From Myxococcales bacterium (GTDB lineage: Bacteria; Myxococcota_A; Polyangia; Palsa-1104; SHYY01), in contig JAHFDT010000003.1 of the NCBI GenBank assembly GCA_023248875.1, positions 1 through 59,248 of the forward strand: a stretch of DNA of 59,248 nucleotides, written 5' to 3'. The position numbers and the translations under genes were made by a program. Under the pieces are notes generated by a model, which saw nothing but the letters and a program-made list of their open reading frames with translations, did no database searches and had not been told where the DNA came from. Position 1 is the first letter of the stretch; every line of letters begins with the position of its first letter. Positions 8,595 through 51,123 of this stretch are shown here, one piece after another.

Positions 8595-8597
8595 CGG

Positions 8598-10577: not shown

Positions 10578-10591
10578 CGAGGAGGCCACCT

Positions 10592-37162: not shown

Positions 37163-37516
37163 ATGAATTTTAGTCGGGCCGATGGCGCCGCCGCCGAGCG
37201 GATCGCTGCCGAGTATCTCGCCCAGCAAGGCTACAAGATTCTCCACCGGAATTTTACCTGCCGGCTGGGCGAGATCGATCTGGTGTGCGAAGAGGGGCCG
37301 ATCCTCTGCTTTGTCGAAGTCCGGATGCGGCGGGTCGATCGCTATGGCGTAGCGCTCGAGACCATCACGCCCAAGAAGCTAGAGCGGATCGTGCGTACGG
37401 CGCGCTACTTTCTTATGAAGCACAACATGGAGGAGCGCGAGTGCCGGTTTGACGTGGTGACGATTCAGGGGGGAGAGGCGCCCGAGCTGGCCCGCAACGC
37501 TTTTCAGGCGGATTAG
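37163..37516 (+). CDS. yraN: YraN family endonuclease-like protein
   Basis: GEIDLV, FVEVR, CRFDVV. Confidence 0.9.
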   Translation: MNFSRADGAAAERIAAEYLAQQGYKILHRNFTCRLGEIDLVCEEGPILCFVEVRMRRVDRYGVALETITPKKLERIVRTARYFLMKHNMEERECRFDVVTIQGGEAPELARNAFQAD

Positions 37517-37941
37517 TTGCAAGACGGTGTCGGACTGGGGCTCGGGCACTGCGCCGGTGTGATTACGCCACCATCGGCGTCGGAGTTGTAACCGCACAGA
37601 AGATCCGACTTGCACACGCAGGCCTTCTTGCAGGCGAATGGACCCGCCACCGCAGCGACCGCACAGACGAAATTGGAATCGCACAGCCCATCGGCGGGCT
37701 TGCCGATGGTCGCAGGCTTGCAATCGTCATCGGTCTTGCATTCGGTGATGGTGCACACCGCACGCGGCGGATCGCCCATCGCCTTCGGCTGGTGGATGAG
37801 GCACAGGCGGGTCAAGCATTCGAGTGAGGGCGAGGCGATCTGGATGCCCGTACCACCATCGGTACCGACGCACTTGCGCCCGATCCCCTGGTCAGCACAG
37901 CCAGTAAACGCCACCAGCGCGAGGGCGCACATCCATTTCAT
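37513..37941 (-). CDS. Cys-rich lipoprotein, possibly CglC/GltK-like
   Basis: Lipobox FTGC; IGRKC...ECLTRLC...CT..EC pattern reminiscent of myxobacterial CglC (from memory, unverified). Confidence 0.55.
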   Translation of the reverse strand: MKWMCALALVAFTGCADQGIGRKCVGTDGGTGIQIASPSLECLTRLCLIHQPKAMGDPPRAVCTITECKTDDDCKPATIGKPADGLCDSNFVCAVAAVAGPFACKKACVCKSDLLCGYNSDADGGVITPAQCPSPSPTPSCN

Positions 37942-38012: not shown

Positions 38013-38728
38013 CTACTTCACCTGCTCGGCAGCGCCCCCGGCGGGTTCGGGGCCGAGCAGCGCATCATCGGTCATCTTGTTGAAATCCTCGAGGGTCGCC
38101 ACCGGAATGCCAATCGGTCCGACCCGTTCGTTACCCGCATGGATGAGGCGCGGCGCCAGCACCTCCGGCCCCTTGGCGCGACGGACGCCCATCGCGGTCG
38201 CGAGATTCTGCCCCGGGGCGAGCTCGGCATGCACCAGCCACCACATGCAGCCGCCGTGGACGACATTGGTGCCCGGCATTCGATATTTATGCTGCCCATC
38301 ATAGAGCACGGTTCCCTCGGGCACATATTGCTTAAGCATTCCGTCCCAGTGTTTGAACTCAGGCTCGTCCATCGCCAACGTGAGGTAGTGGCCGCCTTGG
38401 GATGATCTGCGACCGGTGTCTCCGGCCCCGAGTAGTGGTGCAGGGCTAGATGGGGGCGAACGCTGACCGCAGGGTGAACCGCATCGGTCCCGGAGGCACG
38501 CCACACGATGGCGCCATGGTCGAGTTGAAAGGTGGCGAGGAAGTCGTCGTGCGTCTTGGGCAGGACTGGCACGAAATGGCGCTCGATTTGACGGGTGCCA
38601 AGGTCGCGCTGCACCACGCGAACGGGCAGGCCATGTTTGTCGGCATAGGTTTTGGTGAGGGCCGCTAACTTGGGTGGAGCAGCCAGGGCTATGCTGCTCA
38701 GCAGCGATATGCAAAGAGCTCGCCTCAT
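38013..38728 (-). pseudogene. Array paralogue F, frameshifted by a 1-nt deletion near 38400
   Basis: N-half in ORF 38072..38728 (to ...PVADH), C-half in ORF 38013..38714 (QGGHYLTL...EQVK); one extra base at the GGG 38399-38401 would join them. Confidence 0.85.
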
Positions 38729-38817
38729 AGCTTCACCTGCTCCGCCGCGCCGCCGGCGGGTTCGGGGCCGAGCAGCTCATCGTCGGTCAGCTTCTTGAAG
38801 GCCGCGATGGAGGGCAC
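38693..38817. repeat. 125-bp exact direct repeat (second copy 40116-40240) spanning array gene junctions
   Basis: E/F junction identical to C/D junction, offset 1423 bp. Confidence 0.9.
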
Positions 38818-39447
38818 TGGGATGCCGATCGGGCCGACGAGCTCATTGCCGGCGTGGATGAGGCGGGGCGCCAGCACTTCGGGCCCCTTGGCACGACGCA
38901 CGCCCATCGCGGTTGCGAGGTTGAGCCCGTCGGCTAACTCGGCATGCACCAGCCACCACATGCAGCCGCCATGGACCACGTTGGTGCCCGGCATGCGATA
39001 GCGCTCTCGCCCCTCGAAGAGGTTACCGCTGTCGGGGGCCCACTTCTTGATGAAGTCACGCCAATGGGCGTACTGCTTCGGGTCGATGGCCAGGGTGAGG
39101 TAGTGGCCTCCCAGGTCGTGTCCGGGGGCCGACATGTTGGGCGGCGCCTGGAAATGCAGCGTTTCGCCGGGACGAATGCTGACCGCGGGGTGGATGGGAT
39201 CTCCAATGCTGGCGCGCCACACCACTGCACCCTTCTTGACGTTGAAGGTCGCCAAGAAATCGTCGTGGGTCTTCTCCAAGACGGGAACGAAGTGGCGCTC
39301 GATCTCGCGGGTTCCGAGGTCGCGCTGGACCACGCGCACGGGCAGACCGTTCTTCTCCGCATAGGCCTTGGCCAGCGCCGCGAGTGTGGGCGGGTCGGCC
39401 GCTGCAACGCGGCTCGCCACCACCCAGAGGATCAGCAACCGCCTCAT
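38725..39447 (-). CDS. Array paralogue E, secreted protein with H-x11-H and HGGCMWW motifs
   Basis: Signal peptide; shared constant N- and C-blocks; ATGA overlaps on both sides. Confidence 0.9.
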   Translation of the reverse strand: MRRLLILWVVASRVAAADPPTLAALAKAYAEKNGLPVRVVQRDLGTREIERHFVPVLEKTHDDFLATFNVKKGAVVWRASIGDPIHPAVSIRPGETLHFQAPPNMSAPGHDLGGHYLTLAIDPKQYAHWRDFIKKWAPDSGNLFEGRERYRMPGTNVVHGGCMWWLVHAELADGLNLATAMGVRRAKGPEVLAPRLIHAGNELVGPIGIPVPSIAAFKKLTDDELLGPEPAGGAAEQVKL

Positions 39448-40151
39448 GGCTTCACCTGCTCAGCAGCGCCGCCTGCGGGCTCGGGGCCGAGCAGCTCGTC
39501 GTCGGTCATCTTGTTGAAGGCCTCGAGGTTGGGCACGGGAATGCCGACCGGGCCCACGCGCTCGTTCCCCGCGTGGATCAGACGTGGTGCCAGCACTTCC
39601 GGCCCTTTGGCGCGGCGGACCCCCATCACCGTGGCGAGGTTTTGTCCTGGCGCCAGCTCGGCATGCACCAGCCACCACATGCAGCCGCCGTGGACCGTGG
39701 TCGTGCCGGGCATTCGGTACGTAGCATTCCCGGTATGGAGGACGCCCCCCTCGGGGACGTGCTGCCTGATCATCCCCTGCCAATGGTTGAACTCCGGCTC
39801 GTCGACCGCCAGGGTCAGGTAGTAGCCGGCGCCGTGCCCCGGGAACGCTTTGGCATAGAAGTCGAGGACCATGCCAGGACGAATGCCGATGGTCGGGTGC
39901 ACGTGATCGCCTGCGCTGCGCCACACGATCGCACCGCTGCCCACGTGAAAGGTGGCGAGGAAGTCGTCATGCGTGTTGGGAAGCACCGGAACGAAATGGC
40001 GCTCGATCTGGCGCGTGCCGAGGTCGCGCTGCACCACACGAACGGGCAGGCCATGCTTATCGGCGTAGGCCTTGGTAAGCGCGGCCAACTTGGGCGGCGG
40101 CGCGGCGAATGCCAAGCTGCTCAGCAGCGATATGCAAAGAGCTCGCCTCAT
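39444..40151 (-). CDS. Array paralogue D
   Basis: As above; H-x11-D variant. Confidence 0.9.
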   Translation of the reverse strand: MRRALCISLLSSLAFAAPPPKLAALTKAYADKHGLPVRVVQRDLGTRQIERHFVPVLPNTHDDFLATFHVGSGAIVWRSAGDHVHPTIGIRPGMVLDFYAKAFPGHGAGYYLTLAVDEPEFNHWQGMIRQHVPEGGVLHTGNATYRMPGTTTVHGGCMWWLVHAELAPGQNLATVMGVRRAKGPEVLAPRLIHAGNERVGPVGIPVPNLEAFNKMTDDELLGPEPAGGAAEQVKP

Positions 40152-40861
40152 AGCTTCACCTGCTCCGCCGCGCCGCCGGCGGGTTCGGGGCCGAGCAGCT
40201 CATCGTCGGTCAGCTTCTTGAAGGCCGCGATGGAGGGCACGGGAATGCCGATCGGGCCGACGAGCTCATTGCCGGCGTGGATGAGGCGCGGCGCGAGAAC
40301 CTCGGGCCCTTTAGCGCGCCGAACGCCCATCGCCGTGGCTAGGTTGAGCCCTTTGGCAATCTCCGCATGCACGAGCCACCACATGCAGCCGCCATGGACG
40401 ACCTTGGTACCCGGCATGGTGTAGTTGGTCACGTAGATCTGCCCTTCGTCGGGCGCCCACTTCTTGATGAAGCGATGCCAGTGGTCGAACTGCTTTTTAT
40501 CGACTGCCAAAGTGAGGTAGTAGCCACCTGCATCGTGCGCCGCGACTGGCGTTGCGGGAAGGTGCATGTAGTGCAGGGCCAAGTTGGGATGGATGCTGAC
40601 CGCTGGGTGGACCGGATCCTGGCCGAGTGCACGCCATACGATCGCGCCCTTGTCGATCTGAAAGGTGGCGAGGAAGTCGTCGTGCGTCTTGGGCAGGACC
40701 GGCACAAAGTGGCGCTCGATTTGGCGGGTGCCGAGGTCGCGCTGGACCACGCGCACCGGCAGTCCATGTTTCTTGGCGTAGGCTTGGGCCAGGGCCGCGA
40801 GCTTGGGCGGCGCGGCGAAGGCCAGGCTGCTCAGCAGCGATAAGCAGAGAGCGCGGATCAT
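40148..40861 (-). CDS. Array paralogue C
   Basis: As above. Confidence 0.9.
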   Translation of the reverse strand: MIRALCLSLLSSLAFAAPPKLAALAQAYAKKHGLPVRVVQRDLGTRQIERHFVPVLPKTHDDFLATFQIDKGAIVWRALGQDPVHPAVSIHPNLALHYMHLPATPVAAHDAGGYYLTLAVDKKQFDHWHRFIKKWAPDEGQIYVTNYTMPGTKVVHGGCMWWLVHAEIAKGLNLATAMGVRRAKGPEVLAPRLIHAGNELVGPIGIPVPSIAAFKKLTDDELLGPEPAGGAAEQVKL

Positions 40862-40922
40862 TGTTTCACCTGCTCGGCAGCGCCGCCCGCGGGCTCGGGG
40901 CCGAGCAGCTGGTCATCGGTCA
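40797..40922. repeat. 126-bp exact direct repeat (second copy 41516-41641) spanning array gene junctions
   Basis: B/C junction identical to A/B junction, offset 719 bp. Confidence 0.9.
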
Positions 40923-41580
40923 GTTTTTTGAACTCTTCGATGGTCGCCACGGGAATGCCGATCGGGCCGACGAGCTCATTGCCGGCGTGGATGAGGCGCG
41001 GCGCCAGCACCTCCGGCCCCTTGGCGCGCCGCACGCCCATCGCCGTGGCGAGGTTCAGGTTGGGCGCGATGTGGGCGTGGACGAACCACCACATGCAGCC
41101 GCCGTGGAGGGTGCCGCCATTCTCCTTCTGGAAGCTGGGGCCGCCGTTCCAGGGAGTCTGCCCCTGTGTGGCGGCGATGTGCTTATCGAGGAACTGCTCA
41201 TAGTGGGCAACCTGCTCTGGGGTGAGCGCCAGGGTAAGGTATTGGCCACCGATCGCATGGGGCATGACATCGGCTGACTTGCGTTTGAAATAGGAGATCG
41301 AATAGCCGGGTTGGATGGTCAGCTCGCCATGGACCTTGTCGTTGTTGGTCCGCCAGAGGATGGCCCCCTTGCCGGACTGAAACGTAGCGAGGAAATCGTC
41401 ATGGGTGGCGGGCAGCACGGGCACGAAGTGGCGCTCGATTTGGCGGGTGCCGAGATCGCGCTGCACCACGCGAACGGGCAGACCGTGCTTGTCGGCATAG
41501 ACCTTGGTGAGCGCGGCGAGCTTGGGCGGCGCGGCGAAGGCCAGGCTGCTCAGCAGCGATAAGCAGAGAGCGCGGATCAT
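40858..41580 (-). CDS. Array paralogue B (most divergent centre)
   Basis: As above; H-x11-S variant. Confidence 0.9.
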   Translation of the reverse strand: MIRALCLSLLSSLAFAAPPKLAALTKVYADKHGLPVRVVQRDLGTRQIERHFVPVLPATHDDFLATFQSGKGAILWRTNNDKVHGELTIQPGYSISYFKRKSADVMPHAIGGQYLTLALTPEQVAHYEQFLDKHIAATQGQTPWNGGPSFQKENGGTLHGGCMWWFVHAHIAPNLNLATAMGVRRAKGPEVLAPRLIHAGNELVGPIGIPVATIEEFKKLTDDQLLGPEPAGGAAEQVKQ

Positions 41581-42320
41581 TGTTTCACCTGCTCGGCAGC
41601 GCCGCCCGCGGGCTCGGGGCCGAGCAGCTGGTCATCGGTCATTTTGTTGAAATCCTCGATCGTCGCCACCGGGATGCCAATCGGACCGACGCGCTCGTTG
41701 CCCGCATGGATGAGGCGGGGCGCCAGCACCTCCGGCCCCTTGGCACGGCGAACGCCCATCGCGGTAGCAAGGTTGAGATTGGGGGCGAGCTCGGCGTGGA
41801 CCAGCCACCACATGCAGCCGCCGTGGATGATGTTGGTCCCCGGCATTTTGTAAGTCAGGCCCCCCATGGAGAGCGTCTTGTCTCCACCCACATGCGGCTT
41901 GAGCATCCCCTCCCAGTGTTTGACCTCCGGTTCGTCGACCGCCAGGGTCAGGTAATGGCCGCCCTGTAGGTGGGGGAAGACGGCCTGGGCGGCAGCCGGC
42001 GATCGGGCTGGCGAATAGTAATGGAGTGCTTGGCCGGGGCTGAGGCTGATCACGGGGTGAACCGCGTCGCGGCTCGCCCGCCAGACGATCGCTCCCTGGC
42101 CGATTTGGAAAGTATTCAGGAAATCGTCATGGGTGGCGGGCAGCACCGGTACGAAATGGCGCTCGATCTGGCGCGTGCCGAGATCGCGCTGGACTACCCG
42201 CACCGGCAGCCCGTGCTTGTCGGCATAGACCTTGGTGAGCGCGGCGAGCTTGGGCGGCGCGGCGAGGGCCGCGCTGCTGGCGAGAGAGAGCAGGACCAGA
42301 AGCGAGCGCCTCATGGCCAT
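41577..42320 (-). CDS. Array paralogue A
   Basis: As above; AAGGAG RBS, 5 bp downstream of the CoA-transferase homologue. Confidence 0.9.
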   Translation of the reverse strand: MAMRRSLLVLLSLASSAALAAPPKLAALTKVYADKHGLPVRVVQRDLGTRQIERHFVPVLPATHDDFLNTFQIGQGAIVWRASRDAVHPVISLSPGQALHYYSPARSPAAAQAVFPHLQGGHYLTLAVDEPEVKHWEGMLKPHVGGDKTLSMGGLTYKMPGTNIIHGGCMWWLVHAELAPNLNLATAMGVRRAKGPEVLAPRLIHAGNERVGPIGIPVATIEDFNKMTDDQLLGPEPAGGAAEQVKQ

Positions 42321-42325
42321 CTCCT

Positions 42326-43846
42326 TTATTGAGCGGCGGGAGGCGCTGCCACCACCGGCAGCCCCTCGATAAGCTTGGCGTGCTGCTCGGCTGTGACCAG
42401 CTGTCGCTTGAGTGCCTCGTCCGCCACGTCGCGGCGCATTTCAGCGGGTGCCAGCCGGATCGAGTGGTAGACGCTGCGGACCAATTTATCGAACTGTGCC
42501 TGCTGGAGGAGGCCGGCCTTCAGCGGCGCGGCGGCCAGCTCGGCACGCAGCACCGGATGCGCCACTCTCAACATTTCGTAGGTTCGCTGCGCATCCGAGA
42601 GCCCGCGCAGTTTACGCGTTGCGCCCCACTCGGTGACGATGTGGTCGACGTGCTCCTTCGGGGTGGTGACCACGTCCCCGTTGAGCTTGGGAACGATCGT
42701 CGAGCCGCCGTCCTTGTTGCGCGAGCGCAGCGCGAGAATGGCGAGCCCTTTCTTCGACAACGAGGCGCCCTCCATGAAGTCGGGCTGGCCGCCGGGGAAG
42801 CTGATGATCCGATCGCCGATCCGCTCAGCGTTGACATTGCCGGTGAAGTCGACCTCGAGCGCGGTGTTGATGGCGCGCATGCGCGGCTGGGCAGCGATAT
42901 TGGCTGGGTCGTTGACTTCGCCAGTGGTCGCCATGCGGATCTTCGGGTTGTTGCCGGCCAGGCCGTAGAGTGCGTTCGTGCCATGGAGGAAGCTGAAGAC
43001 CGCCTCCTTGACCGCCGGCTTGTCGCCCACCATGAGCTCGCGTACCCAGTCGGAGCCCATTTCGCTCCAGATGCGCATCTTCCGCTTCTGCTGGAGCGCC
43101 GCGCCAACGCCATTGAGCGAGTTGCCGATGCCGACCTGGATGGTGGTGCGCAGGCGGTTCGGCACGAGACGCGCAATGTGGCTGGCGATCGCCTTTTCGG
43201 GCGCGCCCGGCTGGATGCCGTTGTGCTCCGAGAGGATGCCGCCGCCGTCGATCACCGCAGTGAGCTCGTCATATTTGATGCGGTTGCCGTAGGTGTGGGC
43301 GACGTTGGGGTTCACTTCCGCGATGATGCGGCCGCCGCGCGCCTGCGCCGCGCGCAGGGCCATCAGCGTCAGATCGCCCGCCGAACCGAGGCTAACGTAG
43401 CCATCTTTATCGGGCGGGCTCACGCGGACCACCACGGTATCGATCGGCATTTCGCCCGACTGGATCTTCTTGCCCAAATTGAACAGCGAGGCGCGGTGCA
43501 GCGTGGCCGTGCCATCTTTGGCGGCCTGGCGGTTTTGCGGCGAAACGAATAGCAGATTGGGGTGCCACTTGTCCGCCACCTTGGCATCGAAGTTCTGCGA
43601 CGTAGCAAAGGTCGACATGTAGTAGACGTTGGTGCGGTGGGGTCGCGCGAGCGCGGTGGCTCGCATCGCCGGGACCAGATTGGAGGGCATGGCCGAGCCG
43701 GTGGCGAAGAAGACATGGTTGCCCATCTCTTTGGCGGCATCCCCGATCGAAAGCTTCTTCGGTGCGGCGGAGGCTCGTGGCAAAAGAGCCAGTGCGGAGA
43801 GCACCAAAAGGAGCGGGCGGAGGCGTCGGTTAGCGGAAAGGGACAT
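42326..43846 (-). CDS. Acetyl-CoA hydrolase/transferase family protein (4-hydroxybutyrate CoA-transferase-like) with predicted signal peptide
   Basis: VSPPDKDGYVSLG, IAEVNPN, TIQVGIG, WSEM (catalytic Glu position), AINTALEVDFTG, GGQPDF, IVTEWG; N-terminus MSLSANRRLRPLLLVLSALALLPRASA-APKK. Confidence 0.88.
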   Translation of the reverse strand: MSLSANRRLRPLLLVLSALALLPRASAAPKKLSIGDAAKEMGNHVFFATGSAMPSNLVPAMRATALARPHRTNVYYMSTFATSQNFDAKVADKWHPNLLFVSPQNRQAAKDGTATLHRASLFNLGKKIQSGEMPIDTVVVRVSPPDKDGYVSLGSAGDLTLMALRAAQARGGRIIAEVNPNVAHTYGNRIKYDELTAVIDGGGILSEHNGIQPGAPEKAIASHIARLVPNRLRTTIQVGIGNSLNGVGAALQQKRKMRIWSEMGSDWVRELMVGDKPAVKEAVFSFLHGTNALYGLAGNNPKIRMATTGEVNDPANIAAQPRMRAINTALEVDFTGNVNAERIGDRIISFPGGQPDFMEGASLSKKGLAILALRSRNKDGGSTIVPKLNGDVVTTPKEHVDHIVTEWGATRKLRGLSDAQRTYEMLRVAHPVLRAELAAAPLKAGLLQQAQFDKLVRSVYHSIRLAPAEMRRDVADEALKRQLVTAEQHAKLIEGLPVVAAPPAAQ

Positions 43847-43888
43847 GGGTACCCTCGGCCGCATACCATTCGCGGCGCCTCTCCTCTA

Positions 43889-44055: not shown

Positions 44056-45705
44056 ATGGACCTTCGTCGACTGGGCGGAATGGCTGTCATTTTTGCACTG
44101 CTTCTTCCTGCGCTCGCGGATGCAAAAAAGAAGACCAAGCCGGAGGAGGGGGGCGAAACCATGACCTTCACGCCCGAGGAGACGGGCGCGGCCAAAGCCA
44201 AGCGGGCGGCGGTGATCGATGAGAAGGCGGCCGCGGGAACCGCTTCGAAGGTGCTCGATAGCGCCCTCAAGCTGTACGAGAAAGAGGACTACTATTCGGC
44301 CACCATCGGGTTGAACAAGGTGATGGAGGGTCAGACCACCGACGATGAGATCAATCGTCAGCGCGCCGAATTCTTTATGGGCAAGGCGCTCTTCAATATG
44401 GGCTACTACTCGGCGTCGCTCTCCTATTTCGACCGCATCGTCCAGCGGGGGGGCGAGCACCACTACTACGCCAAAACGCTGCAGTGGCTGGCATCGCTGT
44501 CGCAAAAGCTGCCCGAGTCGGCGGGCGTGCTCGATAAGATCGGCAAGTACACGCGCGAGGATCTCGACCAGCCGGCGCTCGAATCGGTGCGGGACCAGCT
44601 CTTTTTTCTACTGGGCCGCTACCACTACACGAAGGGCAATTTCAAAGAGGCGGTGGGGCTGTTTCAGGCGCTGCCCGAGGCGAGCGAATTCTACGCCCGC
44701 GCCAAGTTTTTCGAAGGCATCACCTACGTGCGCCAGTACCAGGCGCAGCCCGCTGCCGAGGCCTTCAAGGCGATCTTGCGCAAAGCCAAGGAGCACCCCG
44801 ATAAGGCCACCCAGGAGTTCGAGGAGCTGGCCAACATTTCCTTGGCGCGCACCTTTTATTCCCTATCGCAGTTCGACAAGGCGGTGAAGTATTTCGACCG
44901 TGTGCCGACCGAATCGGCCGACTGGTTGGCGTCGCTGTTCGAGTCGGCCTGGGCGCAGTTCCAGATCGACGGCGACTCGAAGGCGCTCGGCAATATCCAT
45001 TCGATCAACGCGCCATTTTTCGAGAACGAATTCTATCCCGAGTCGCTGATTTTGAAGGCGGTCATCTACTTCCAACGCTGCAACTACGAGCTGGCGATGG
45101 CGGCGGTGGCGGAGTTCAACGAGACCTATCCGGGGCTGAAGAAGGACATCGAAAAGGTAATCAACAAGTACCCGGACAACGCGGCTTTTTACAAGTATGT
45201 GCTCCGGATCCGCCGCGGCGAATCGGGGCTACCCGACCGTGTGCAGCGCGCGGCCGAGGGGGCGCTGTCGGACAAGACGCTGGTCAAGACGCTCGACTAT
45301 GTCGCCGAGCTCGACCGCGAGCTGCACCAGGTGGAGAAATCAGACCCGGCCTGGAAGTCGACGGCCATCGCTGGCAACATCTTGCAGGATCTGACGCTAC
45401 AGCAGTCCCTGGCGCAGAACGATGCCGGCACCATGGCACGTGATCGCCTCAAGCGGCTCTCGACGGAGATCCAGGAGCTGGTGAAGCAGGCGCTCAAGAT
45501 CGAGTACGAAACGCTGAATGCGCAAAAGGGCGTGCTGGAGGCGTCGCTGCGGAGCGAGCAGTCGGTCGCGAGCGGCACCGCGCGCAAGAATGCCGAGGTG
45601 GTCGCCGATGATGAGCACGAGAAGTGGCCCTTCGACGGCGAGTATTGGCAGGACGAGCTCGGGTACTATAAGTCCCGCATCGTCAACAAGTGCTCGGCCA
45701 AGTGA
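44056..45705 (+). CDS. gltC: Adventurous gliding motility TPR protein GltC-like
   Basis: Signal peptide, TPRs, C-terminal DDEHEKWPFDGEYWQDELGYY motif. Confidence 0.8.
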   Translation: MDLRRLGGMAVIFALLLPALADAKKKTKPEEGGETMTFTPEETGAAKAKRAAVIDEKAAAGTASKVLDSALKLYEKEDYYSATIGLNKVMEGQTTDDEINRQRAEFFMGKALFNMGYYSASLSYFDRIVQRGGEHHYYAKTLQWLASLSQKLPESAGVLDKIGKYTREDLDQPALESVRDQLFFLLGRYHYTKGNFKEAVGLFQALPEASEFYARAKFFEGITYVRQYQAQPAAEAFKAILRKAKEHPDKATQEFEELANISLARTFYSLSQFDKAVKYFDRVPTESADWLASLFESAWAQFQIDGDSKALGNIHSINAPFFENEFYPESLILKAVIYFQRCNYELAMAAVAEFNETYPGLKKDIEKVINKYPDNAAFYKYVLRIRRGESGLPDRVQRAAEGALSDKTLVKTLDYVAELDRELHQVEKSDPAWKSTAIAGNILQDLTLQQSLAQNDAGTMARDRLKRLSTEIQELVKQALKIEYETLNAQKGVLEASLRSEQSVASGTARKNAEVVADDEHEKWPFDGEYWQDELGYYKSRIVNKCSAK

Positions 45706-45731
45706 GGGCGCAGATGAAACTAGCGAAAACA

Positions 45732-45803
45732 CCGCGCGGGGAGCGCGCGGCAGGGGGAGGCTCGAGCGAGCTTGGATCGCTGGAGGGGGACGGGAAGGTC
45801 CCC
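45732..45803. repeat. Three-hairpin intergenic element, copy 2
   Basis: CCGCGCG-N5-CGCGCGG (45732-45750), imperfect CTCGAGCGA/TCGCTGGAG stem, GGGGAC-GGGAAG-GTCCCC (45786-45803). Confidence 0.85.
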
Positions 45804-45812
45804 GAGTATGCC

Positions 45813-45863
45813 GAGCTTGGGTACTACAAATCGCGCATCGTCAACAAGTGCTCGGCCAAGTGA
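45813..45863 (+). repeat. 51-bp duplicate of gltC 3' end (45655-45705)
   Basis: Encodes the same ELGYYKSRIVNKCSAK-stop; 47/51 identical, four third-position synonymous differences. Confidence 0.95.
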
Positions 45864-45877
45864 GAGGTTAGGTTCCG

Positions 45878-48800
45878 ATGAATCGAGTTGCCTTCGGGAG
45901 CACCCTTTTGTGGGTAGCCGTCGCCACCGCTGTTCCTCCTAAATACACCAAAAAAGAGGCGTCGGTGACGTCGCAGCAGACCGCGCTCACCAAGCCGGCG
46001 CAGCGGGCCAAAGAGGAAAAACAGCGGCCCACCATCGATGCTTCCGATGTATTCGGCGGCGTGGGTGAGCAGCTCAAAGCGGTCACAGATCAGCAGATCA
46101 AAGTGATGCAGCGCCTCATCGAGAACACCGGTGACGACGATCCGGAAAAGCCCGACTATCATTTCCGCATCGCGGAGCTCTACGCGCAGCAGGAGCACTA
46201 CTACAGCTTCCGCGCCCGCGAGCTCGACCAAAAGATCTTCGAAGCGGTGCAGGCGAACAAGGCGGCGGTGGCCGAGCAGTTCAAGAAGCAGCAGACCGAT
46301 TACGAAAACCGCGAGAAAACTTGGCTCAAGGCCGCGGTCAAGGAGTACCTGAAGGTCACCGAGAATCCCAAGTTCAATGGCTACAAGCGCATGGACGAGG
46401 TGCTGTTCTACCTCGCCTTTCTTTTGACGCAGCAGAAGCGCGAAGATCTGGCGCGACCGATCTTCAAGCGCCTCATCAAGGACTATCCCGATTCGAAGTA
46501 CATCCCCGATGCACTGCTCTCCTTCGGGGAGTACTACTTCGAGCAGAAGGACATCGAGAATGCGCTGCGTTTTTACGACAAGGTGCTGCAGTATCCGCAA
46601 TCGCGCGTCTTTGGCTACGCGCTCTATAAGAAGGGTTGGTGCTACCTCAACCTGCAGGACTTCAAATCGGCCCTGCAGATTTTCGAGAGGGTGATCCTCG
46701 AAACCAAAGTCGACAAGAAGGACACCAACAAGCTATCGCTTTTGAAAGAGGCGAAGAAGGATTCGGTGCGCGCCTACTCGCAGATTTCGTCGGCGCCGCC
46801 CGACAAGGCGTGGCCCTATTTTCAGCGCATCGGCGGCGATTTTGCGCCGACCATGCTCGAGCAGCTGGGGGAGCTCTACAACGCGCAGGGCAAATTCCCC
46901 GAGAGCATCGTGATCTATCGGCAGCTCATCAAGCTCAACCCCACTTCGCCCAAGCTCTGTTCGTGGCAGGAGGAGATCCTGCGCAACACACTGTCGAAGA
47001 CCGGTTCGCGCGCTACCCCCGAGGCGGTGCAGGAGCTCGAGCGCCTATCGGCGGTGCTGGAAAAGTTCAAGACCATGGCGGGCGTGAAGAGGGAGGCGGT
47101 CGAGGAGTGCCGCGATAACACCGCTGGCTCGCTGCGCGAGCTCGCGACGACCTGGCACAAAGAGGCGCAGAAGACCAACGTCAAGGAGACCTACGCGCTC
47201 GCCCAGTCGCTCTACAAGGAGTACATCACGAAGTTTCCCGAGGAGAAGGATGTCTACCCGATGACCTTCTACTACGGCGAACTCCTGTTCAAGTTGGAGA
47301 AGTTCTGCGATTCGGCGCCGGTCTATACCAACGTTGTCACGATGAACGGGGGCAACGACGCGCGCTATCGCAACGAGTCGGCCTACGCGGCGGTCATTTC
47401 GTGGAAGAACTGCCTCGCGGTTGACGACCAGGAGCATGTCGACGAGAGCCAGCGCAAGGGGGTGGTGAAGGACGTTCGCGACCAAAAGAAGGGCAAGGGC
47501 AAGGAGAAGGACCCGGAGAAGAGCCGGGCCGAGGAGCTGGCGAAGTTCAAGCCGCTCGAGATCCCGGAGAAGTGGCACAAGATGCTCGACGCCTTCGACA
47601 CCTACATCAAGTACGTGCCGAATTCTCCCGAGCTTCCGACCATCCGCTACCGTAAAGCGCGCGTTTTCTACGAATACAACCACTTCGAAGATGCGGCGAA
47701 GTTTTTCCGCGAGGTGGTCGAAAACCATCGCGATTCGGAGCTCGCGCCGGTAGCGGCCAACCTGCTTTTCGATTGCGATAACATTCTGCGGCAGGCGCAA
47801 AGCGGCACCTTTGAGCAGCTGCGCGGCGATACCAAGAAGTACTGCAGCTGGCCCGATCTCATCAAGGATGGCGACTTCGTCAAGCAGTGCGACACCATCA
47901 CGGCGAATCTGACCCGCATGGAGATCGAGGACTTCGAGCACAAGGGGGAAAAGGACATCAAGTACTATCGCAAGGCCGCCGATATGTACTGCAAGCTGGC
48001 GGAGGAGCACCCTGAAGACCCGAAGGTGGACGAGGTCTGGTACAACTGCGCGATCGATTACGAGCGCGCCAAGCAGCTTGGCAAGGCGATCGAAACGCGC
48101 ATCAAATTGATCAAGTTGAAGCCTGTCAGCATACTCGCGCAAAAGTCGGTCTTTTTCCTGGGGCGCGCCTACCGCGACATCGCCGCCTACGACAAGGCGG
48201 CGGAGCAGTTCGAGACCTTTGCCGTCAAGTATCCGGGGGAGAAGGCCAAGCCGGGCGACCGCAGTGCGCCCGACGCTGCGACCGCGCTCTATTCCGCGTC
48301 GATCTATCGGCGCGGCCTCGGCGAGGTGGAAAAGGCGGTCGAGGATGCTAAGAAGTTCGTCGATCTTTACGGCAATCGCGGTAAGGAGAACGAAGACAAG
48401 GCGGCGGGCGTCTTCTTTGGTCTGGCGCAGATCTATGAGCAGCAGAAGGATCGCGTGAAGCTGGCGAAGCATCTGAACGACTATCTGAAGGCCTGGGGGC
48501 AAAAGGGTGGCGCGGATCGACAGATCATCGCCAATGTGAAGCTGGGCGAGCTCGCCTGGGCCGATAGCTGCCCGGTGGCGGGGGTCAACGGCGCCTGCAT
48601 CGAGGTGACCCGCGTGCGTGCTTCGTCGGCGACGCGCGTGGCAGAAAGAGCGAGCAAGGGCAAGAAGGGCAAGAAGCTGAAGAAGAAGGGCGCGGTGCTG
48701 CCGGCGCAGTGCGGGCCGGAGACCAAATCGAAGATCACGCTGCATGAGCGCAAGCCGGCGCTGATCAAGCAGGCGCAGGACTACTTTGCTGCAGCGATGA

Positions 48801-49516
48801 AGGAGTATGCGAACGGCGCGGCAGTGAAGAAGATCCCCGGCAAAGACGAGGCGGAGCGGGCGGCGCGGGCCGATTCGATGATGTACTACGTGGCCGAGGC
48901 GCGCTCGATGGAGGGCAATCGGGAGTATGAGAAGCTGATTGGAATGAAGATCCCGGACAAGCTCGACTTTACGCCCGTCGATGTCAGCGCGTCGAAGGCC
49001 AAGCAGGCCAAGGACAAGAAGCGGCTCGACGACAACAGCAAGAAGTTTAAGACCTGGTACGAGACCAAGATCAAGCAGGTCGATACGGCGCAGAAGATCT
49101 ACCAGCAGGTGATTCTGTTCAAGCAGGCCCACTGGGCGATCGCAGCGGCGGCACGAATCGGTCAGATCTTCCAGGACTTCTCGGGTCAGCTCTACACTGC
49201 ACCGGTGCCGAAGGCAGGCAAGGCGCCGGAGGGGATGTCGCAGGAGGAGTTCGACCAACTCTTCCATGACTCCTACTGCGACCAGATGACCGATACCGCC
49301 GAGCCGCTCGAGACCAAGGCGGTTGAGGGGCTTTCGACCTGTCTCAAGAAGTCGACCGACCTGCAGTGGTTCAACGAGTGGTCGGCGCTGTGCGAGGCGG
49401 AGCTCAACCAGATCAAGCCGCAGGAGTACCCGCTCGCGTCGGAGATCCGCGGCGTGCCTGGCTACTTCGATAAACGGCCCGATTCGGCGTCCTTGATTAC
49501 GGAGCTCAAACAATGA
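45878..49516 (+). CDS. gltD: Large periplasmic TPR gliding protein GltD/AgmU-like
   Basis: 1212 aa, signal peptide, many TPRs, C-terminal WAIAAAARIG...EPLE.KA...FNEWS; upstream of gltE/F/G-like genes. Confidence 0.8.
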   Translation: MNRVAFGSTLLWVAVATAVPPKYTKKEASVTSQQTALTKPAQRAKEEKQRPTIDASDVFGGVGEQLKAVTDQQIKVMQRLIENTGDDDPEKPDYHFRIAELYAQQEHYYSFRARELDQKIFEAVQANKAAVAEQFKKQQTDYENREKTWLKAAVKEYLKVTENPKFNGYKRMDEVLFYLAFLLTQQKREDLARPIFKRLIKDYPDSKYIPDALLSFGEYYFEQKDIENALRFYDKVLQYPQSRVFGYALYKKGWCYLNLQDFKSALQIFERVILETKVDKKDTNKLSLLKEAKKDSVRAYSQISSAPPDKAWPYFQRIGGDFAPTMLEQLGELYNAQGKFPESIVIYRQLIKLNPTSPKLCSWQEEILRNTLSKTGSRATPEAVQELERLSAVLEKFKTMAGVKREAVEECRDNTAGSLRELATTWHKEAQKTNVKETYALAQSLYKEYITKFPEEKDVYPMTFYYGELLFKLEKFCDSAPVYTNVVTMNGGNDARYRNESAYAAVISWKNCLAVDDQEHVDESQRKGVVKDVRDQKKGKGKEKDPEKSRAEELAKFKPLEIPEKWHKMLDAFDTYIKYVPNSPELPTIRYRKARVFYEYNHFEDAAKFFREVVENHRDSELAPVAANLLFDCDNILRQAQSGTFEQLRGDTKKYCSWPDLIKDGDFVKQCDTITANLTRMEIEDFEHKGEKDIKYYRKAADMYCKLAEEHPEDPKVDEVWYNCAIDYERAKQLGKAIETRIKLIKLKPVSILAQKSVFFLGRAYRDIAAYDKAAEQFETFAVKYPGEKAKPGDRSAPDAATALYSASIYRRGLGEVEKAVEDAKKFVDLYGNRGKENEDKAAGVFFGLAQIYEQQKDRVKLAKHLNDYLKAWGQKGGADRQIIANVKLGELAWADSCPVAGVNGACIEVTRVRASSATRVAERASKGKKGKKLKKKGAVLPAQCGPETKSKITLHERKPALIKQAQDYFAAAMKEYANGAAVKKIPGKDEAERAARADSMMYYVAEARSMEGNREYEKLIGMKIPDKLDFTPVDVSASKAKQAKDKKRLDDNSKKFKTWYETKIKQVDTAQKIYQQVILFKQAHWAIAAAARIGQIFQDFSGQLYTAPVPKAGKAPEGMSQEEFDQLFHDSYCDQMTDTAEPLETKAVEGLSTCLKKSTDLQWFNEWSALCEAELNQIKPQEYPLASEIRGVPGYFDKRPDSASLITELKQ

Positions 49517-50799
49517 CCCGCGCTATCCTGATCACTCTTTTCATGGCAGGTGTGGCGAGTGCCAAGAGTGAGCCCAAGTCGGTGGCCCCGGACTTTGCCA
49601 AGCTGGTAGTGAAGGTGGCGGAGGCGCGCAAGGCGGTGCCAGGGGGCAAGCTCACCGCCGATCTGAGCGTGCGCTTCGCCAGCGATTTCATGTCGCTAGG
49701 AAAGGAGGGCGCTTCGGCCGAGTCCTACTTTAACGCCGGGGTGCTGTCGGCCCAGGCGGGGGATACCGCGGCCGCGGAACGCGCCTATCGCGCGGCGATC
49801 GATGCCAACACCAACTTTGCGCCGGCCCACGCCAATCTCGGGGAGCTCGCCTACAAGGCGGGCAAGATCGACCTGGCGCAGCAGGAGTTTGAGACGGCGC
49901 TCAAGCTCGATCCCAAGAATGTGGCGGCCTACAACGGCAGCGCCCTCTTGCTGTTCGAAAAGGCGGCGGCGACCAACAACGCGGTGCTGCTCAAGGAGGC
50001 GGTCGGCAAGTTGCGGCGCGCACTGGCGGTCGACGCCGAATCGATGCCCGCCTATTCGCTGCTCGCCCTCATCTATTATGCGCTGGCCGAGGCCGACCCG
50101 TCGAAGCTCGATCTGGCCAAGCTCGTGTGCGAGCAGGGGCTCGAGGTCGATAAGGAGCATCCGCAGATCTACAACACGCTTGGGCTCATCTACCTCGAGC
50201 GCAAGAACGTGACGCTCGCGCTCCAGCAGTTTCGTAACGCGGTGAAGTACGATCCCAAGTACGTGGAGGCCCAGCTCAACATCGGCGCAATCACGCTTAA
50301 TGCGCGTGGGTATCAGGAGGCGGAGGCGGCGTTTAAAGCGGTGCTTGAGGCCAAACCAACGCTTGAGCAGCAGTTCGATGCCACGGTCGGGATGGGGGTG
50401 GCGCTGCGGGGGCAGCGGCGCGTCGATGAGGCGGAGCAGTGGTATGCCAAGGCCAAGGCACTTTCGCCGGGAGCCTGCGCGCTGTCCTACAACTTGGGGG
50501 TGCTCTACCAGGACTACAAGTCGGGGAACGAGGCCGATCAGACCAAGGCCAAGGGGCTGTTTCAGGAGTTTCTCAAGTGCGGCCAGGCGGATCCCGACAA
50601 GCTCAAGGATGGCGCTCGCCGGATCAAGGACATCGACGACTACTTCAAGGCACTGGTCGAGCAGAAGAAGCTGGAAGAGGAGAATCGCAAGCTGCAGGAA
50701 GAGGCGGAGAAGATGATGAAGCAGCAGCAGGAGCAGGAGCGGCTGCAGCAGCAACAGGCTTCGCCACCGCCCGCTCCGGGGCCGCCGGTCAAGAAATAG
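49513..50799 (+). CDS. gltE: TPR gliding protein GltE/AglT-like
   Basis: Signal peptide, TPRs, GVALRGQ, YNLGVLY, Gln/Glu coiled-coil and Pro-rich tail. Confidence 0.75.
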   Translation: MTRAILITLFMAGVASAKSEPKSVAPDFAKLVVKVAEARKAVPGGKLTADLSVRFASDFMSLGKEGASAESYFNAGVLSAQAGDTAAAERAYRAAIDANTNFAPAHANLGELAYKAGKIDLAQQEFETALKLDPKNVAAYNGSALLLFEKAAATNNAVLLKEAVGKLRRALAVDAESMPAYSLLALIYYALAEADPSKLDLAKLVCEQGLEVDKEHPQIYNTLGLIYLERKNVTLALQQFRNAVKYDPKYVEAQLNIGAITLNARGYQEAEAAFKAVLEAKPTLEQQFDATVGMGVALRGQRRVDEAEQWYAKAKALSPGACALSYNLGVLYQDYKSGNEADQTKAKGLFQEFLKCGQADPDKLKDGARRIKDIDDYFKALVEQKKLEEENRKLQEEAEKMMKQQQEQERLQQQQASPPPAPGPPVKK

Positions 50800-50845
50800 T
50801 GGGAACCCTTGGGTTGCACGGTTGTCAAAGGCTAGGAGGATCCAG

Positions 50846-51112: not shown

Positions 51113-51123
51113 GAGCCTTTCCG

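Follow-up and report, generated by a model that had tools for sequence, protein, structure and literature searches.

Class I CoA-Transferases and Related Enzymes

That class I CoA-transferases work in the cytoplasm is textbook knowledge, since coenzyme A, their co-substrate, is restricted to that compartment. The closest known relatives of the protein described here are the 4-hydroxybutyrate CoA-transferases (AbfT of Clostridium aminobutyricum, 3gk7/3qdq; the Shewanella enzyme, 2oas; and 9vag) and the butyryl-CoA transferase RipA (3qli). The fold is shared by the alpha subunit of citrate lyase, a citrate:acetyl-ACP transferase that works on a thioester borne by a partner protein. MdcA of malonate decarboxylase likewise exchanges carboxylates on a partner-protein-borne thioester and not on free CoA, and in its proposed mechanism the malonate carboxylate attacks acetyl-MdcC directly (PMC5534430). 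According to PMC3180442 and PMC4876117, the catalytic, acyl-glutamyl-forming Glu is Glu249 in RipA and Glu294 in AarC, respectively; both sources assign a role to a mobile loop (G-V-G/Val270), and the latter describes AarC Asn347 as the internal oxyanion-hole carboxamide and Gly388 as acting in the external oxyanion hole. In full-text literature searches, none of the papers listed dealt with a CoA-transferase that is exported.

The window, that is, the whole 59,248-nt stretch of DNA analysed here, comes from an uncultured groundwater MAG; among relatives with the gene, the closest bears the label Polyangia. Four sequencing runs with the locus were found, all from one groundwater study, with no RNA run among them. 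The features discussed below are collected in Table 1.

Table 1. Positions of the CoA-transferase homologue, its sequence features and the array genes in the window
Feature	Residues	Position	Strand	Basis or remark
CoA-transferase homologue gene, predicted exported		42326..43864	(-)	stop codon 42326-42328; ORF and Pfam/PDB matches
Signal-peptide-like extension	1-33	43766..43864	(-)	predicted cleavage between ASA and AP; sequence, model, alignment
QVGIG loop	243-247	43124..43138	(-)	putative counterpart of mobile G-V-G/Val270 loop of RipA and AarC, by motif
SEMG motif, catalytic-type Glu268 (codon 43061-43063)	267-270	43055..43066	(-)	alignment to 3gk7
Asn333 in AINTALEVD, candidate internal oxyanion-hole carboxamide	333	42866..42868	(-)	equivalence by motif
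GGQ motif, putative external oxyanion-hole glycine	358-360	42785..42793	(-)	alignment, motif
Repeat unit 1, PLKAGLLQQAQFDKLV	447-462	42479-42526	(-)	overlaps canonical last helix
C-terminal extension	461-512	42329..42484	(-)	missing from solved homologues; model, structural alignments
Repeat unit 2, ALKRQLVTAEQHAKLI	484-499	42368-42415	(-)	inside C-terminal extension
Array gene 1		41577..42320	(-)	247 aa; annotated P0122, 245 aa; secreted-type, one cysteine
Array gene 2		40858..41580	(-)	240 aa; 4-nt overlap with neighbour
Array gene 3		40148..40861	(-)	237 aa
Array gene 4		39444..40151	(-)	235 aa
Array gene 5		38725..39447	(-)	240 aa
Array gene 6		38013..38728	(-)	frameshift-split in window sequence; two partial matches

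The Gene, Its Start and Its Fold

The open frame of 519 aa has an in-frame stop seven codons above the first Met (M1, nt 43,864), from which the product is 512 aa long. A second in-frame ATG (M7, nt 43,846), which the sequence-only reading had given as the upper coordinate of this minus-strand gene, gives a protein of 506 aa (P0002). Each start has a purine-rich stretch upstream, and the hydrophobic N-terminus is kept with either; the next Met, M47, lies 13 residues inside the conserved fold.

The product has the two-domain class I CoA-transferase fold. Pfam PF13336 is matched with 151.9 bits (cut-off 23.7), while the acyl-pocket half, PF02550, reaches only 26.9 bits (cut-off 24) compared to 49-105 bits in other family members. 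In the PDB, its sequence is best matched by 4-hydroxybutyrate CoA-transferases (E 6.4e-51), and residues 34-457 of the AF2 model (pLDDT 92) superpose on chain residues 2-428 of 2oas (VIA-align with 2oas_A, Z 48.8, rmsd 2.0 Å, 412 residues). Across the group of 4-hydroxybutyrate CoA-transferases and RipA, the values are Z 44-49, rmsd 2.0-2.5 Å over 402-419 residues, 30-32% identity and sequence E-values of 1e-36 to 6e-51, and the Glu in an (S/T)EM motif and the GGQ and QxGxG loops are held in common. Unlike these enzymes, the homologue has an N-terminal domain that Pfam barely recognises, a 33-residue signal-like extension, a helical C-terminal extension of 52 residues, no cysteines of its own and an obligatory secreted partner with one cysteine. 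AarC belongs to the same superfamily (Z 32-35) but is cytoplasmic and 22% identical, and the citrate lyase alpha subunit (1xr4, Z 26.2; 2hj0) and MdcA (5vit, Z 23.9; 6mpr), with Z 23-26, are also cytoplasmic and only 13-16% identical. It is strongly supported that, within class I, the protein belongs to the 4-hydroxybutyrate-CoA-transferase branch. Scores against the NCBIfam equivalogs for butyryl-CoA:acetate CoA-transferase (TIGR03948, NF053666), succinate CoA-transferase (TIGR03458) and ScpC (NF053853) were far under their cut-offs, at 121 bits against 674.8, 50.5 against 740, 51.5 against 658.7 and 44.6 against 500, and so none of those enzyme names fits.

In the tree, clade A and the fusion clade B each have an SH-aLRT support of 100 and lie together on one side of a branch with support 99, and all exported types fall on one side of a branch at 82. 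The nearest non-exported relatives (28-35% identity), on the cytoplasm-type side, are fusions of 610-640 aa in which a CoA-transferase is joined to a GNAT domain (PF13336, PF02550 and PF00583). Like the exported system they pair the enzyme with a second domain of acyl-transfer type, but they have cysteines, no signal peptide, and a GNAT partner at the C-terminus.

Solved homologues superpose only up to model residues 453-460. The 52 residues that follow are predicted to be helical, with pLDDT 94-98 to about residue 500 (AF2). As the sequence-only reading had noticed, there are two similar helical units in this part of the protein: they are identical at 6/16 residues, and only 2/2000 shuffles matched their BLOSUM62 score. 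The repeat is a family feature, since its score is matched by 20/2000 shuffles or fewer in 28 of the 31 ungapped rows of alignment A2.

Catalytic Residues

The same reading had reported the Glu of an SEM motif and a GGQ motif as retained, and both align with those of 3gk7. Glu268 pairs with the Glu of IHSEMISDG (chain residue 238), the catalytic Glu of AbfT, and GGQ pairs with GVGGQVDF. By this alignment, Glu268 is the counterpart of the residue that forms the acyl-glutamyl anhydride and the glutamyl-CoA thioester. By motif and aligned region, Asn333 and GGQ would correspond to Asn347 and Gly388 of AarC, and Glu268 and the QVGIG loop to its Glu294 and Val270 loop (PMC4876117). Clade A (34 sequences), clade B (16 sequences) and P0070 all share Glu268, the QxGxG residues (Q243, G245, G247), Asn333, G358-G359-Q360 and T411-E412-G414, each with 100% conservation, and across all groups position 333 is Asn in 99-100%. 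On the strength of this conservation, an apparently complete acyl-glutamyl-anhydride machinery (Glu268, QxGxG loop, Asn333 and GGQ) is strongly supported. The exported set comprises 51 sequences with just 17-77% overall identity, and Gly occupies the Glu position in 25% of the cytoplasm-type comparison set.

Other positions have changed. Unlike the 4-hydroxybutyrate CoA-transferases and RipA, the exported protein lacks G264, K281, R365 and R403, and Trp stands for His two residues before Glu268. In the exported clades as a whole, G264, H266, K281, R365 and R403 are lost or replaced though conserved in the cytoplasm-type enzymes (H266 in 97%, K281 in 93%, R365 in 70% and R403 in 85%). A literature source tying H266, K281, R365 and R403 to CoA contact was not found.

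Evidence for Export

The first 33 residues, MRPRVPMSLSANRRLRPLLLVLSALALLPRASA, are followed by APKK. They comprise a basic n-region (RR..R), an uncharged hydrophobic core (LLLVLSALALL; top 8-mer Kyte-Doolittle value 3.02) and ASA at -3/-1, with no Cys. In the AF2 model, residues 1-30 have a pLDDT of 43-54, and the fold begins behind them, as model residues 30-34 onward pair with residues 1-2 of solved full-length enzymes. These features and the lack of a lipobox cysteine are those of a predicted Sec-type (signal peptidase I) signal. A Tat motif with a preceding S/T ([ST]RRxFL-type) occurs in 0/34 clade A members, RR is present in 10/34, and RRx followed by two hydrophobic residues in 1/34.

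An export signal had been proposed from the sequence, and a survey of signal-bearing homologues suggested as a check. Among the homologues is a rare clade, A, in which all 34 full-length members score positive in our own crude signal-peptide heuristic, which also flags 10 of the 74 other homologues found in the same search. It is also positive for 14/16 of the fused or other exported types and 37/40 array proteins. The extension is present in 34/34 orthologues, conserved in kind and not in sequence, and in the fused forms the sole signal stands ahead of the partner domain. The fold is also depleted in cysteine, being free of it in 33/34 clade A members, in P0070 and in 15/16 of clade B; among relatives of cytoplasm type the median is five Cys in the fold, and only 1/89 has none, and the cytoplasmic enzymes encoded in the window have 1-17.

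A start downstream of the hydrophobic stretch was also looked for, and M1 and M7 were both found to precede the core. Basic residues N-terminal of a hydrophobic core place an enzyme on the outside according to the positive-inside rule, and this would apply here. Sec-type export of the CoA-transferase homologue is therefore well supported by comparison, and on these heuristic and comparative grounds the protein probably departs from the usual cytoplasmic location of its family.

Operon Structure and Fusions

The gene heads an operon in which a gap of 5 nt separates it from the first of six paralogous genes (the array genes), followed by five 4-nt overlaps. Related loci were found using an alignment as query, a single-protein query having given no relative. 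Three array genes lie directly downstream of the CoA-transferase gene in locus L010, one lies upstream in L011, L093 and L095, the two are fused in L091, and divergent array copies lie downstream in L012 and L096. Altogether, the two are adjacent or fused in 8/12 clade A loci; the other four are contigs of 1.7-3.0 kb that end at or near the 5' end of the gene. Next to the operon lie GltC-like and TPR gliding-type genes, but a functional connection with them is not supported: L010, a locus with 73% identity, is flanked by genes of other kinds.

Fusions of array domain and CoA-transferase in a single polypeptide (P0007, P0020, P0023, P0042, P0055, P0066, P0069, P0072 and P0175-P0186) have arisen repeatedly, in three sequence types and many metagenomic proteins; the profile behind the further fusions also spanned CoA-transferase columns (712 positions), and mostly CoA-transferases were matched by it. 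P0177, P0178 and P0179 also have alpha/beta-hydrolase domains fused to them, in L012 such domains are encoded within the operon, and the multi-domain polypeptides that join partner, CoA-transferase and alpha/beta-hydrolase domains are 1316-1450 aa long. The suggestion, made from the sequence of the window, that the enzyme is linked to the array proteins is strongly supported by the overlapping operon, the paired loci and the many fusions. The same holds for the view that the pairing is ancient and so nearly obligatory that it is met again and again, both as adjacent genes and as one fused polypeptide.

The Array Proteins

Stand-alone members of the array domain number at least 53, in addition to the many fusions, and six-copy arrays are found on other contigs as well. 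The sixth gene, which is split in the window, is intact as P0123 (238 aa) in the protein collection, and one public contig of run X1 has an extra G behind nt 38,398. The six paralogues are conserved in their N- and C-terminal thirds and vary between residues 81 and 163 or so. Of 49 mature array proteins, 36 contain a single Cys and 12 contain two. In the AF2 model of array protein 1 (pLDDT 89.9), Cys167 opens the helix 166-172, and the conservation of C167, H203 and N206 stays at 90% or above when distant fusions are counted in.

In searches of Pfam, NCBIfam, PHROGs and PADLOC, neither the array protein nor the small ORF P0318 nor the third gene of L057 could be assigned to a family. Foldseek gave no match of the array model to the PDB at E<=0.001, and a second look gave a top Z of 3.5, to unrelated ribosome-silencing and nucleotidyltransferase chains. 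In a search independent of Foldseek, no chain among 48,161 reached Z 5. Its top three rows were the permuted papain-like/NlpC-P60 thiol enzymes YiiX (2if6), a B. cereus cysteine peptidase (3kw0) and the type VI effector hydrolase TseH (6v98, Z 4.1), all under the usual noise level (Z 4.0-4.5, rmsd 3.7-4.5 Å); the best was 3kw0 (Z 4.5, rmsd 4.5 Å, 132 residues), and 5xn7, the RID acyltransferase domain of MARTX, also matched weakly (Z 3.2). The partner has in common with the thiol enzymes a Cys at the N-terminus of a helix and conserved His and Asn, but matches them neither in Foldseek nor in sequence families. Since the similarity is at noise level, the case for a catalytic role of Cys167 comes from its conservation, which suggests such a role.

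The ESM Atlas offered no usable feature match and a poor model of its own (pLDDT 0.32), and a word-index search for longer proteins with the array domain found none, a weak result given that fusions do exist. Between residues 24 and 85 the A3 profile matched SUMO2/3 chains, with E 2e-4 against a tandem SUMO2 construct and 0.0075 against SUMO2 alone, which we treat as no more than a lead. Matches to ubiquitin-type Pfam families were found in 0/29 array members, and in a comparison of the N-terminal 60 residues with the beta-grasp fold the predicted secondary structure fits only the helix and the next two strands. We also considered the C-terminal carboxylate or 'GG' tail as a general substrate of the transferase, and rejected it because the GP.P.GG motif is internal in the fusions P0007, P0020 and P0023 and the next Glu is not kept in the fusions. 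That the array domain constitutes a new domain family, with no assigned family or convincing match to a solved fold in these searches, is strongly supported.

Possible Functions of the Pair

From the sequence alone, the enzyme had been proposed to act on CoA esters derived from prey or lysate, or on a non-CoA thioester linked to the array proteins; both proposals live on, as our favoured reading and its main rival. The reading we favour, at a probability of about 0.45, is an exported two-part system for thioester or acyl exchange in which a cysteine of the partner stands in for CoA. The CoA-transferase and the array protein would act jointly outside the cytoplasm. Cys167, at the N-terminus of its helix and accompanied by the conserved His203 and Asn206, would bear the thioester that CoA bears in the cytoplasmic enzymes, and Glu268 would take the acyl group from this protein-bound thiol or exchange carboxylates on it. 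The changed or missing residues that cytoplasm-type enzymes conserve, and the low PF02550 score of the acyl-pocket half, would fit this reading. MdcA of malonate decarboxylase and the alpha subunit of citrate lyase provide an analogy, as the same fold works there on carrier-protein thioesters; in both, however, the carrier thiol belongs to a CoA-like prosthetic group borne by a small ACP and not to a cysteine of a 240-aa protein, and unlike in the direct attack proposed for MdcA (PMC5534430), Glu is invariant in the exported clade. The six paralogues, differing in their middle parts, could each bring in another acyl donor or acceptor, or another target. That alpha/beta-hydrolases recur as partners would point to ester substrates of lipid type as an ATP-free source of acyl groups; a thioester outside the cell needs an energy source, which speaks against the model, and an ester as donor is speculation. 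The complete form of this proposal, a CoA-free and ATP-free extracytoplasmic relay in which the new-fold partner is the thiol carrier and the six paralogues, joined in other organisms by fused lipase-like hydrolases, feed or direct acyl groups to targets in the envelope or in foreign cells, is possible but doubtful.

The fully kept catalytic set fits a true CoA-dependent enzyme equally well, and its strict conservation is also what would be expected of a secreted effector that drains or rewires the acyl-CoA pool inside another cell, whether prey or competitor. Such an enzyme, by itself or together with the partner domain, would leave by the Sec route and then travel further; the one-cysteine proteins would be co-effectors (e.g. 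acyltransferases using acyl-CoA) or modules for targeting or delivery, and the hydrolase domains further effector modules. There are well-known exotoxins that leave the producer by the Sec route and use NAD+, a cofactor found in the target cell. The tandem amplification of the partner and its variable middle are a pattern typical of arms-race genes, the long polypeptides that join partner, CoA-transferase and hydrolase domains would suit this function, the GNAT fusions couple a CoA-transferase to a user of acyl-CoA, and 6v98 and 5xn7 are among the weak fold matches of the partner. These two matches are at noise level, however, and the locus has no linked translocation or delivery machinery, its neighbours being housekeeping and TPR/GltC-like genes that are not conserved in L010. 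An immunity-like cytoplasmic gene is likewise missing from the operon, and His266 and the basic residues of the cytoplasm-type enzymes are lost. We consider an effector unlikely, though it is the main rival of the favoured reading.

A stand-alone exported hydrolase or transferase could instead scavenge free thioesters or CoA esters from lysates, with the array proteins as co-expressed cargo. The combination of a signal peptide with intact catalytic residues would fit this, as would the acyl-CoA hydrolases among the members of the family (Pfam name). Extracellular CoA esters are scarce and labile, however, the acyl-pocket half of the enzyme is strongly diverged, and translational coupling and the repeated two-domain fusion in three sequence types argue for a joint function, which makes mere scavenging improbable. 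There is a slighter chance that the CoA-transferase fold is a catalytically silent scaffold that binds or chaperones the secreted array proteins. Some conserved residues of the cytoplasmic enzymes are indeed lost, and the clade-specific helical C-terminal extension with its repeat could be a docking element, but a dead site would not be expected to keep Glu268, Asn333, GGQ and QxGxG invariant across 51 such diverged sequences when a quarter of the cytoplasm-type set has Gly for Glu. An ordinary cytoplasmic CoA-transferase, with its start called too far upstream or with an anchor on the cytoplasmic face of the membrane, is very improbable, given a hydrophobic core that follows both candidate starts and basic residues before it, an extension in every orthologue, a next Met inside the fold, the near-universal lack of Cys and, in fusions, a signal that precedes the partner domain.

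Significance

The findings give a coherent picture of a subfamily that is, judged by comparison of its sequences, exported, cysteine-free and catalytically intact, and that is tied by operon and fusion to a secreted one-cysteine domain; some of its members carry lipase-like domains as well. If the relay is true, thioester exchange would have been moved outside the cell by means of a protein thiol, which would add a new principle to the biochemistry of the ATP-free periplasm. If instead the proteins are secreted effectors, they would form a new class directed against the acyl-CoA pools of other cells. With either reading, the locus provides a directly testable protein pair and a newly defined domain family.

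The transferase gene and its product

The sequence-only reading had described a CoA-transferase homologue with an export-signal N-terminus, retained SEM glutamate and GGQ motifs and a C-terminal extension with two similar helical units, and this observation is confirmed in all parts. Both candidate start codons (Met1 and Met7) are preceded by purine-rich stretches, the frame is open for 519 aa from an in-frame stop seven codons upstream of Met1, and the next in-frame methionine beyond Met7 is Met47. Residues 1–33 (MRPRVPMSLSANRRLRPLLLVLSALALLPRASA, then APKK) show the anatomy of a Sec signal peptide. The motifs are found as SEMG (residues 267–270) and GGQ (358–360), and the C-terminal units (447–462 and 484–499) are identical at 6 of 16 residues, with a score reached by 2 of 2000 shuffles. 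The repeat is a family feature: for 28 of the 31 family rows that align without gaps, no more than 20 of 2000 shuffles score as high. Proline-rich low-complexity tails, e.g., repeated LPPLD or PPPPPPINFG, end several clade members (P0008, P0012, P0015), and the window protein itself ends in PVVAAPPAAQ.

A signal heuristic (a basic residue, then at least 10 uncharged residues with an 8-mer Kyte-Doolittle value of at least 2.0, within the first 30 residues) was positive for all 34 full-length members of clade A, the close relatives of the window transferase, for 14 of the 16 sequences that are fused or otherwise exported and for 37 of 40 array proteins; in the false-positive control, 10 of the 74 remaining homologues were positive. 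The Tat motif ([ST]RRx plus two hydrophobic residues) occurred in 0 of 34 clade A sequences and, as twin-arginine motifs are not conserved, the Sec route is more likely than Tat. Cysteine content is an independent, compositional signature of export. The CoA-transferase fold has no cysteine in 33/34 clade A members, in 15/16 of the fusion clade (clade B) and in P0070, a third exported type, while the 89 cytoplasm-type relatives have a median of five (range 0–12) and only one of them is cysteine-free. Cytoplasmic enzymes encoded in the window carry 1–17 cysteines.

Clade A is rare. A word-index search returned 125 homologues, about 40 of them at 45–77% identity (P0003–P0041) and the others at 39% or less. 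No further genome among 400 sampled in the same phylum matched the transferase at E ≤ 1e-60, and 185,579 species genomes gave only three loci at 48–73% identity; the two MAGs that carry them are labelled Polyangia and Polyangiaceae. The transferase is the single family member found in the window's own genome, a 4.0-Mb MAG that is 88% complete, and the locus is present in four groundwater metagenome runs, all from one study.

Fold and active site

Pfam matched the acetyl-CoA hydrolase/transferase family strongly in its C-terminal domain (PF13336, 151.9 bits) and barely in its N-terminal domain (PF02550), at 26.9 bits against a cut-off of 24; the latter is the more diverged half, scoring 49–105 bits in other members. 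In RipA the N-terminal domain forms the acyl pocket (PMC3180442). The closest solved proteins by sequence are 4-hydroxybutyrate CoA-transferases (9vag, E 6.4e-51; 3gk7, E 1.7e-47), followed by RipA (E about 1e-36) and, distantly, succinyl-CoA:acetate transferases of the AarC type (E about 1e-4). Four NCBIfam equivalogs were touched, all far below cut-off (e.g., 121 bits vs 674.8), and by so wide a margin that no specific enzyme name should be given. The transferase belongs to no curated equivalog, and is distinguished by its location, cysteine content, C-terminal extension, altered residues around the glutamate and obligatory partner.

An AlphaFold2 model built from 34 family sequences (pLDDT 92, pTM 0.88) superimposes on 2oas_A (Z 48.8, rmsd 2.0 Å over 412 residues; model 34–457 on chain 2–428) and 3gk7_A (Z 47.2; 30–460 on 1–441). 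The canonical enzyme starts right at the end of the predicted signal peptide, which makes residues 1–33 an add-on outside the fold. Residues 461–512 have no counterpart in solved structures; helices are predicted at 455–471, 474–486 and 492–498 (pLDDT 94–98), followed by a disordered Pro/Ala tail.

The active site was compared across 34 clade A sequences, 16 of clade B plus P0070, and 89 cytoplasm-type enzymes. Glu268, Gln243/Gly245/Gly247, Asn333, Gly358-Gly359-Gln360 and Thr411-Glu412-Gly414 are 100% conserved in all exported sequences and correspond, by motif only, to elements of RipA and AarC that PMC3180442 and PMC4876117 describe: a nucleophilic Glu, a mobile G-V-G/Val270 loop, an internal oxyanion-hole Asn and an external oxyanion-hole Gly. 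Other positions are conserved in cytoplasm-type enzymes and have been substituted or deleted in the exported clades: Gly264 (89%), Gln343 (92%), Arg365 (70%) and Arg403 (85%). His266 (97%) is lost, with Trp in 91% of clade A, as is Lys281 (93%), and loop 279–286 is deleted in clade B and P0070. No literature source was found for CoA contact by Gly264, His266, Lys281, Gln343, Arg365 or Arg403, and their loss is treated as a lead.

The array proteins

Six paralogous genes of 235–247 codons start 5 nt past the transferase stop codon, each sharing a 4-nt overlap with the next. The frameshift that splits array gene 6 is probably an assembly error or strain variant, since a public contig of metagenome run X1 has an additional G behind 38398 and the protein collection includes an unbroken 238-aa form (P0123). 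A seventh, solitary paralogue (P0133) lies away from the transferase on another contig, preceded by two paralogous secreted proteins of ~175 aa and followed by a convergent gene with CxxCH motifs. The word-index search gave 53 family members, all unnamed, without Pfam domains and often six per contig.

Every array protein has its own predicted signal peptide. The N-terminal third (about 21–80) and C-terminal third (about 164–245) are conserved and the middle is variable. Exactly one cysteine is present in 36 of 49 mature proteins, and Cys167, His203, Asn206, Arg52, Gly187 and Pro235 are kept even when the distant fused versions are included. In the AlphaFold2 model (pLDDT 89.9, pTM 0.86) Cys167 sits at the N-terminus of helix 166–172. 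Foldseek returned no match at E ≤ 0.001, a second look being no better, and exhaustive VIA-align against 48,161 chains gave no Z of 5 or above. Its top three were permuted-papain/NlpC-P60 thiol hydrolases (3kw0, Z 4.5; 6v98, 4.1; 2if6, 4.0), scores that count as noise on the tool's own scale. Pfam, NCBIfam, PHROGs and PADLOC gave no family for the partner domain. The family profile matched SUMO2/3 chains (E 0.0075 for single SUMO2, 2e-4 for a tandem construct) from helix alpha-1 through the next strands to the FQxxxG(G/A) position, and 0 of 29 members matched ubiquitin-type Pfam models; the similarity may be a partial beta-grasp or chance.

Pairing of transferase and partner

The pairing of transferase and partner is conserved, and the two have been fused repeatedly. 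Of 12 loci encoding a clade A type transferase (window, L010–L012, L090–L096, L112), eight have the partner domain next to it or fused with it; the other four are contigs of 1.7–3.0 kb ending at or near the transferase 5' end, so that the upstream side is not visible. The L011 partner lies immediately upstream of an exported CoA-transferase with 54% identity. It carries a Gln/Ala-rich, coiled-coil-like repeat of ~700 residues between the domain's last strand and the terminal 25 residues; these retain the conserved GP.P.GGAAE tail and end ...LMGPPPGGGAAEAVRQ. Signal-partner-transferase fusions are P0007, P0020 and P0023 in clade A and all of clade B, the more distant of the two (P0042, P0055, P0066, P0069, P0072, P0175–P0186). 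The partner's C-terminal carboxylate was rejected as a candidate transferase substrate, since fusions have the tail motif inside the polypeptide.

P0177, P0178 and P0179 (1316–1450 aa) have one or two added alpha/beta-hydrolase domains behind the transferase, and in L012 a hydrolase gene follows the partner gene with stop and start overlapping. A second, very divergent cysteine domain with an NCYNFG motif is found at the C-termini of P0177 and P0180, and one with HNCATW at that of P0186. In a third locus type, L057 from a Myxococcales MAG, the signal-bearing transferase stands between a 367-aa protein that has a CTNW cysteine motif and a secreted 246-aa protein that shows a His...Cys pattern. 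Any relation of these two to the array family is at best very distant (hhalign gives probabilities of 15% and under 1%). Upstream matches of comparable weakness were seen in L050, L074, L105, L115 and L116.

A maximum-likelihood tree of 74 sequences recovered clades A and B, each with SH-aLRT 100, and a branch at 99 sets the two jointly apart from the rest; the branch that groups every exported type has a value of 82, so that this grouping is neither shown nor rejected. Rows were hand-picked (20/34 clade A, 14/16 clade B, a random draw of 28/89 cytoplasm-type, and 11 GNAT fusions), and P0187, a row classed as cytoplasm-type, is a fusion fragment that fell inside clade B.

Features of the window and of related loci
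Position	Strand	Feature	Remarks
42326..43864	-	Exported transferase	512 aa
43846	-	Second in-frame ATG, Met7	End coordinate in the sequence-only reading; start of 506-aa form P0002 in the protein collection
42329-42364		Transferase C-terminus	
38013-38728	-	Array gene 6	Split by frameshift
42066-42251	-	Example of SUMO2/3 match	Array residues 24-85
37513-37941	-	P0318, 142-aa ORF	72 nt downstream of array
44056-53265	+	TPR/FHA genes	Divergent from operon
4501-13128		Short-chain acyl-CoA cluster	Cytoplasmic
Window		Six partner copies	Downstream of transferase
L010		Three partner copies	Downstream
L011, L093, L095		One partner copy each	Upstream
L011:4-2856	+	Partner-domain protein	At least 950 aa
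L091		Partner fused to transferase	
L012		Divergent partner copy	Downstream; hhalign E 1.9e-4, Cys and GNERV motifs match
L096		Divergent partner copy	Downstream; E 4.5e-4
P0177, P0178, P0179; L012:2297-3313; L097:4891-8886		Alpha/beta-hydrolase recurring with the pair	Abhydrolase_1/6, Hydrolase_4
L057:101-3640		P0070-type signal-bearing CoA-transferase	Lys/Ala-rich linker
L007:1384-2268		P0133, solitary array paralogue	G000 (the window's own genome) contig C275

Genomic neighbourhood

P0318, on the same strand as the array, has a lipobox-like N-terminus (..AFTGC) and many cysteines, and no family in Pfam, PHROGs or PADLOC. The divergent genes specify a GltC-like TPR protein (NF033756 at 349 bits, below the cut-off of 450), a 1212-aa TPR protein, a further TPR protein and an FHA-domain protein. 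Together they form a gliding-motility-type neighbourhood, suggestive of a myxobacterial-type organism and not conserved beside the L010 orthologue. The acyl-CoA cluster comprises an ScfR-type regulator, acyl-CoA dehydrogenase, MaoC hydratase, methylmalonyl-CoA-mutase-family protein, 3-hydroxyacyl-CoA dehydrogenase and zinc alcohol dehydrogenase, and is without a CoA-transferase gene.

Discussion

The results strongly support export of an enzyme whose class I active site is intact, together with a secreted, obligatory partner bearing a single conserved thiol. The reading tentatively preferred here, at a probability of roughly 45%, is a relay in which the thiol role of CoA would be taken over by the partner's cysteine, and Glu268 would make and resolve acyl-glutamyl anhydrides with the partner-bound thioester. 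Such a division of labour would suit an oxidising compartment in which an enzyme without cysteines meets a partner that has one, and the alpha/beta-hydrolase partners suggest esters as a possible ATP-free acyl source. The class I CoA-transferase fold is known to act on thioesters carried by proteins. Structural matches of the transferase model include citrate lyase alpha and MdcA (Z 23–26), but their carriers hold a CoA-like prosthetic group, unlike the proposed partner cysteine, which counts against the relay. So does the pantetheine amide of CoA itself, which contributes to the oxyanion hole of class I enzymes (PMC4876117). The noise-level similarity of the modelled partner to thiol-enzyme folds also tells against the relay, as does the conserved active site, which a true CoA enzyme would equally retain.

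These points make the main rival a secreted effector using the acyl-CoA pool of another cell, with the variable, amplified partners and lipase-like domains as co-effectors or targeting modules. Such an enzyme would keep just this active site, but no delivery system or immunity gene is linked to the locus and the flanking genes are not conserved, and an effector is considered unlikely. A scavenging hydrolase that stands alone is improbable beside the conserved pairing, and a dead scaffold somewhat more so beside the invariant catalytic residues. Least probable is a mis-called cytoplasmic enzyme.

No papers on exported, periplasmic or secreted CoA-transferases were found among the matches listed, in a search of literature outside subscription journals. 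A CoA-free relay, if confirmed, would make the system categorically new.
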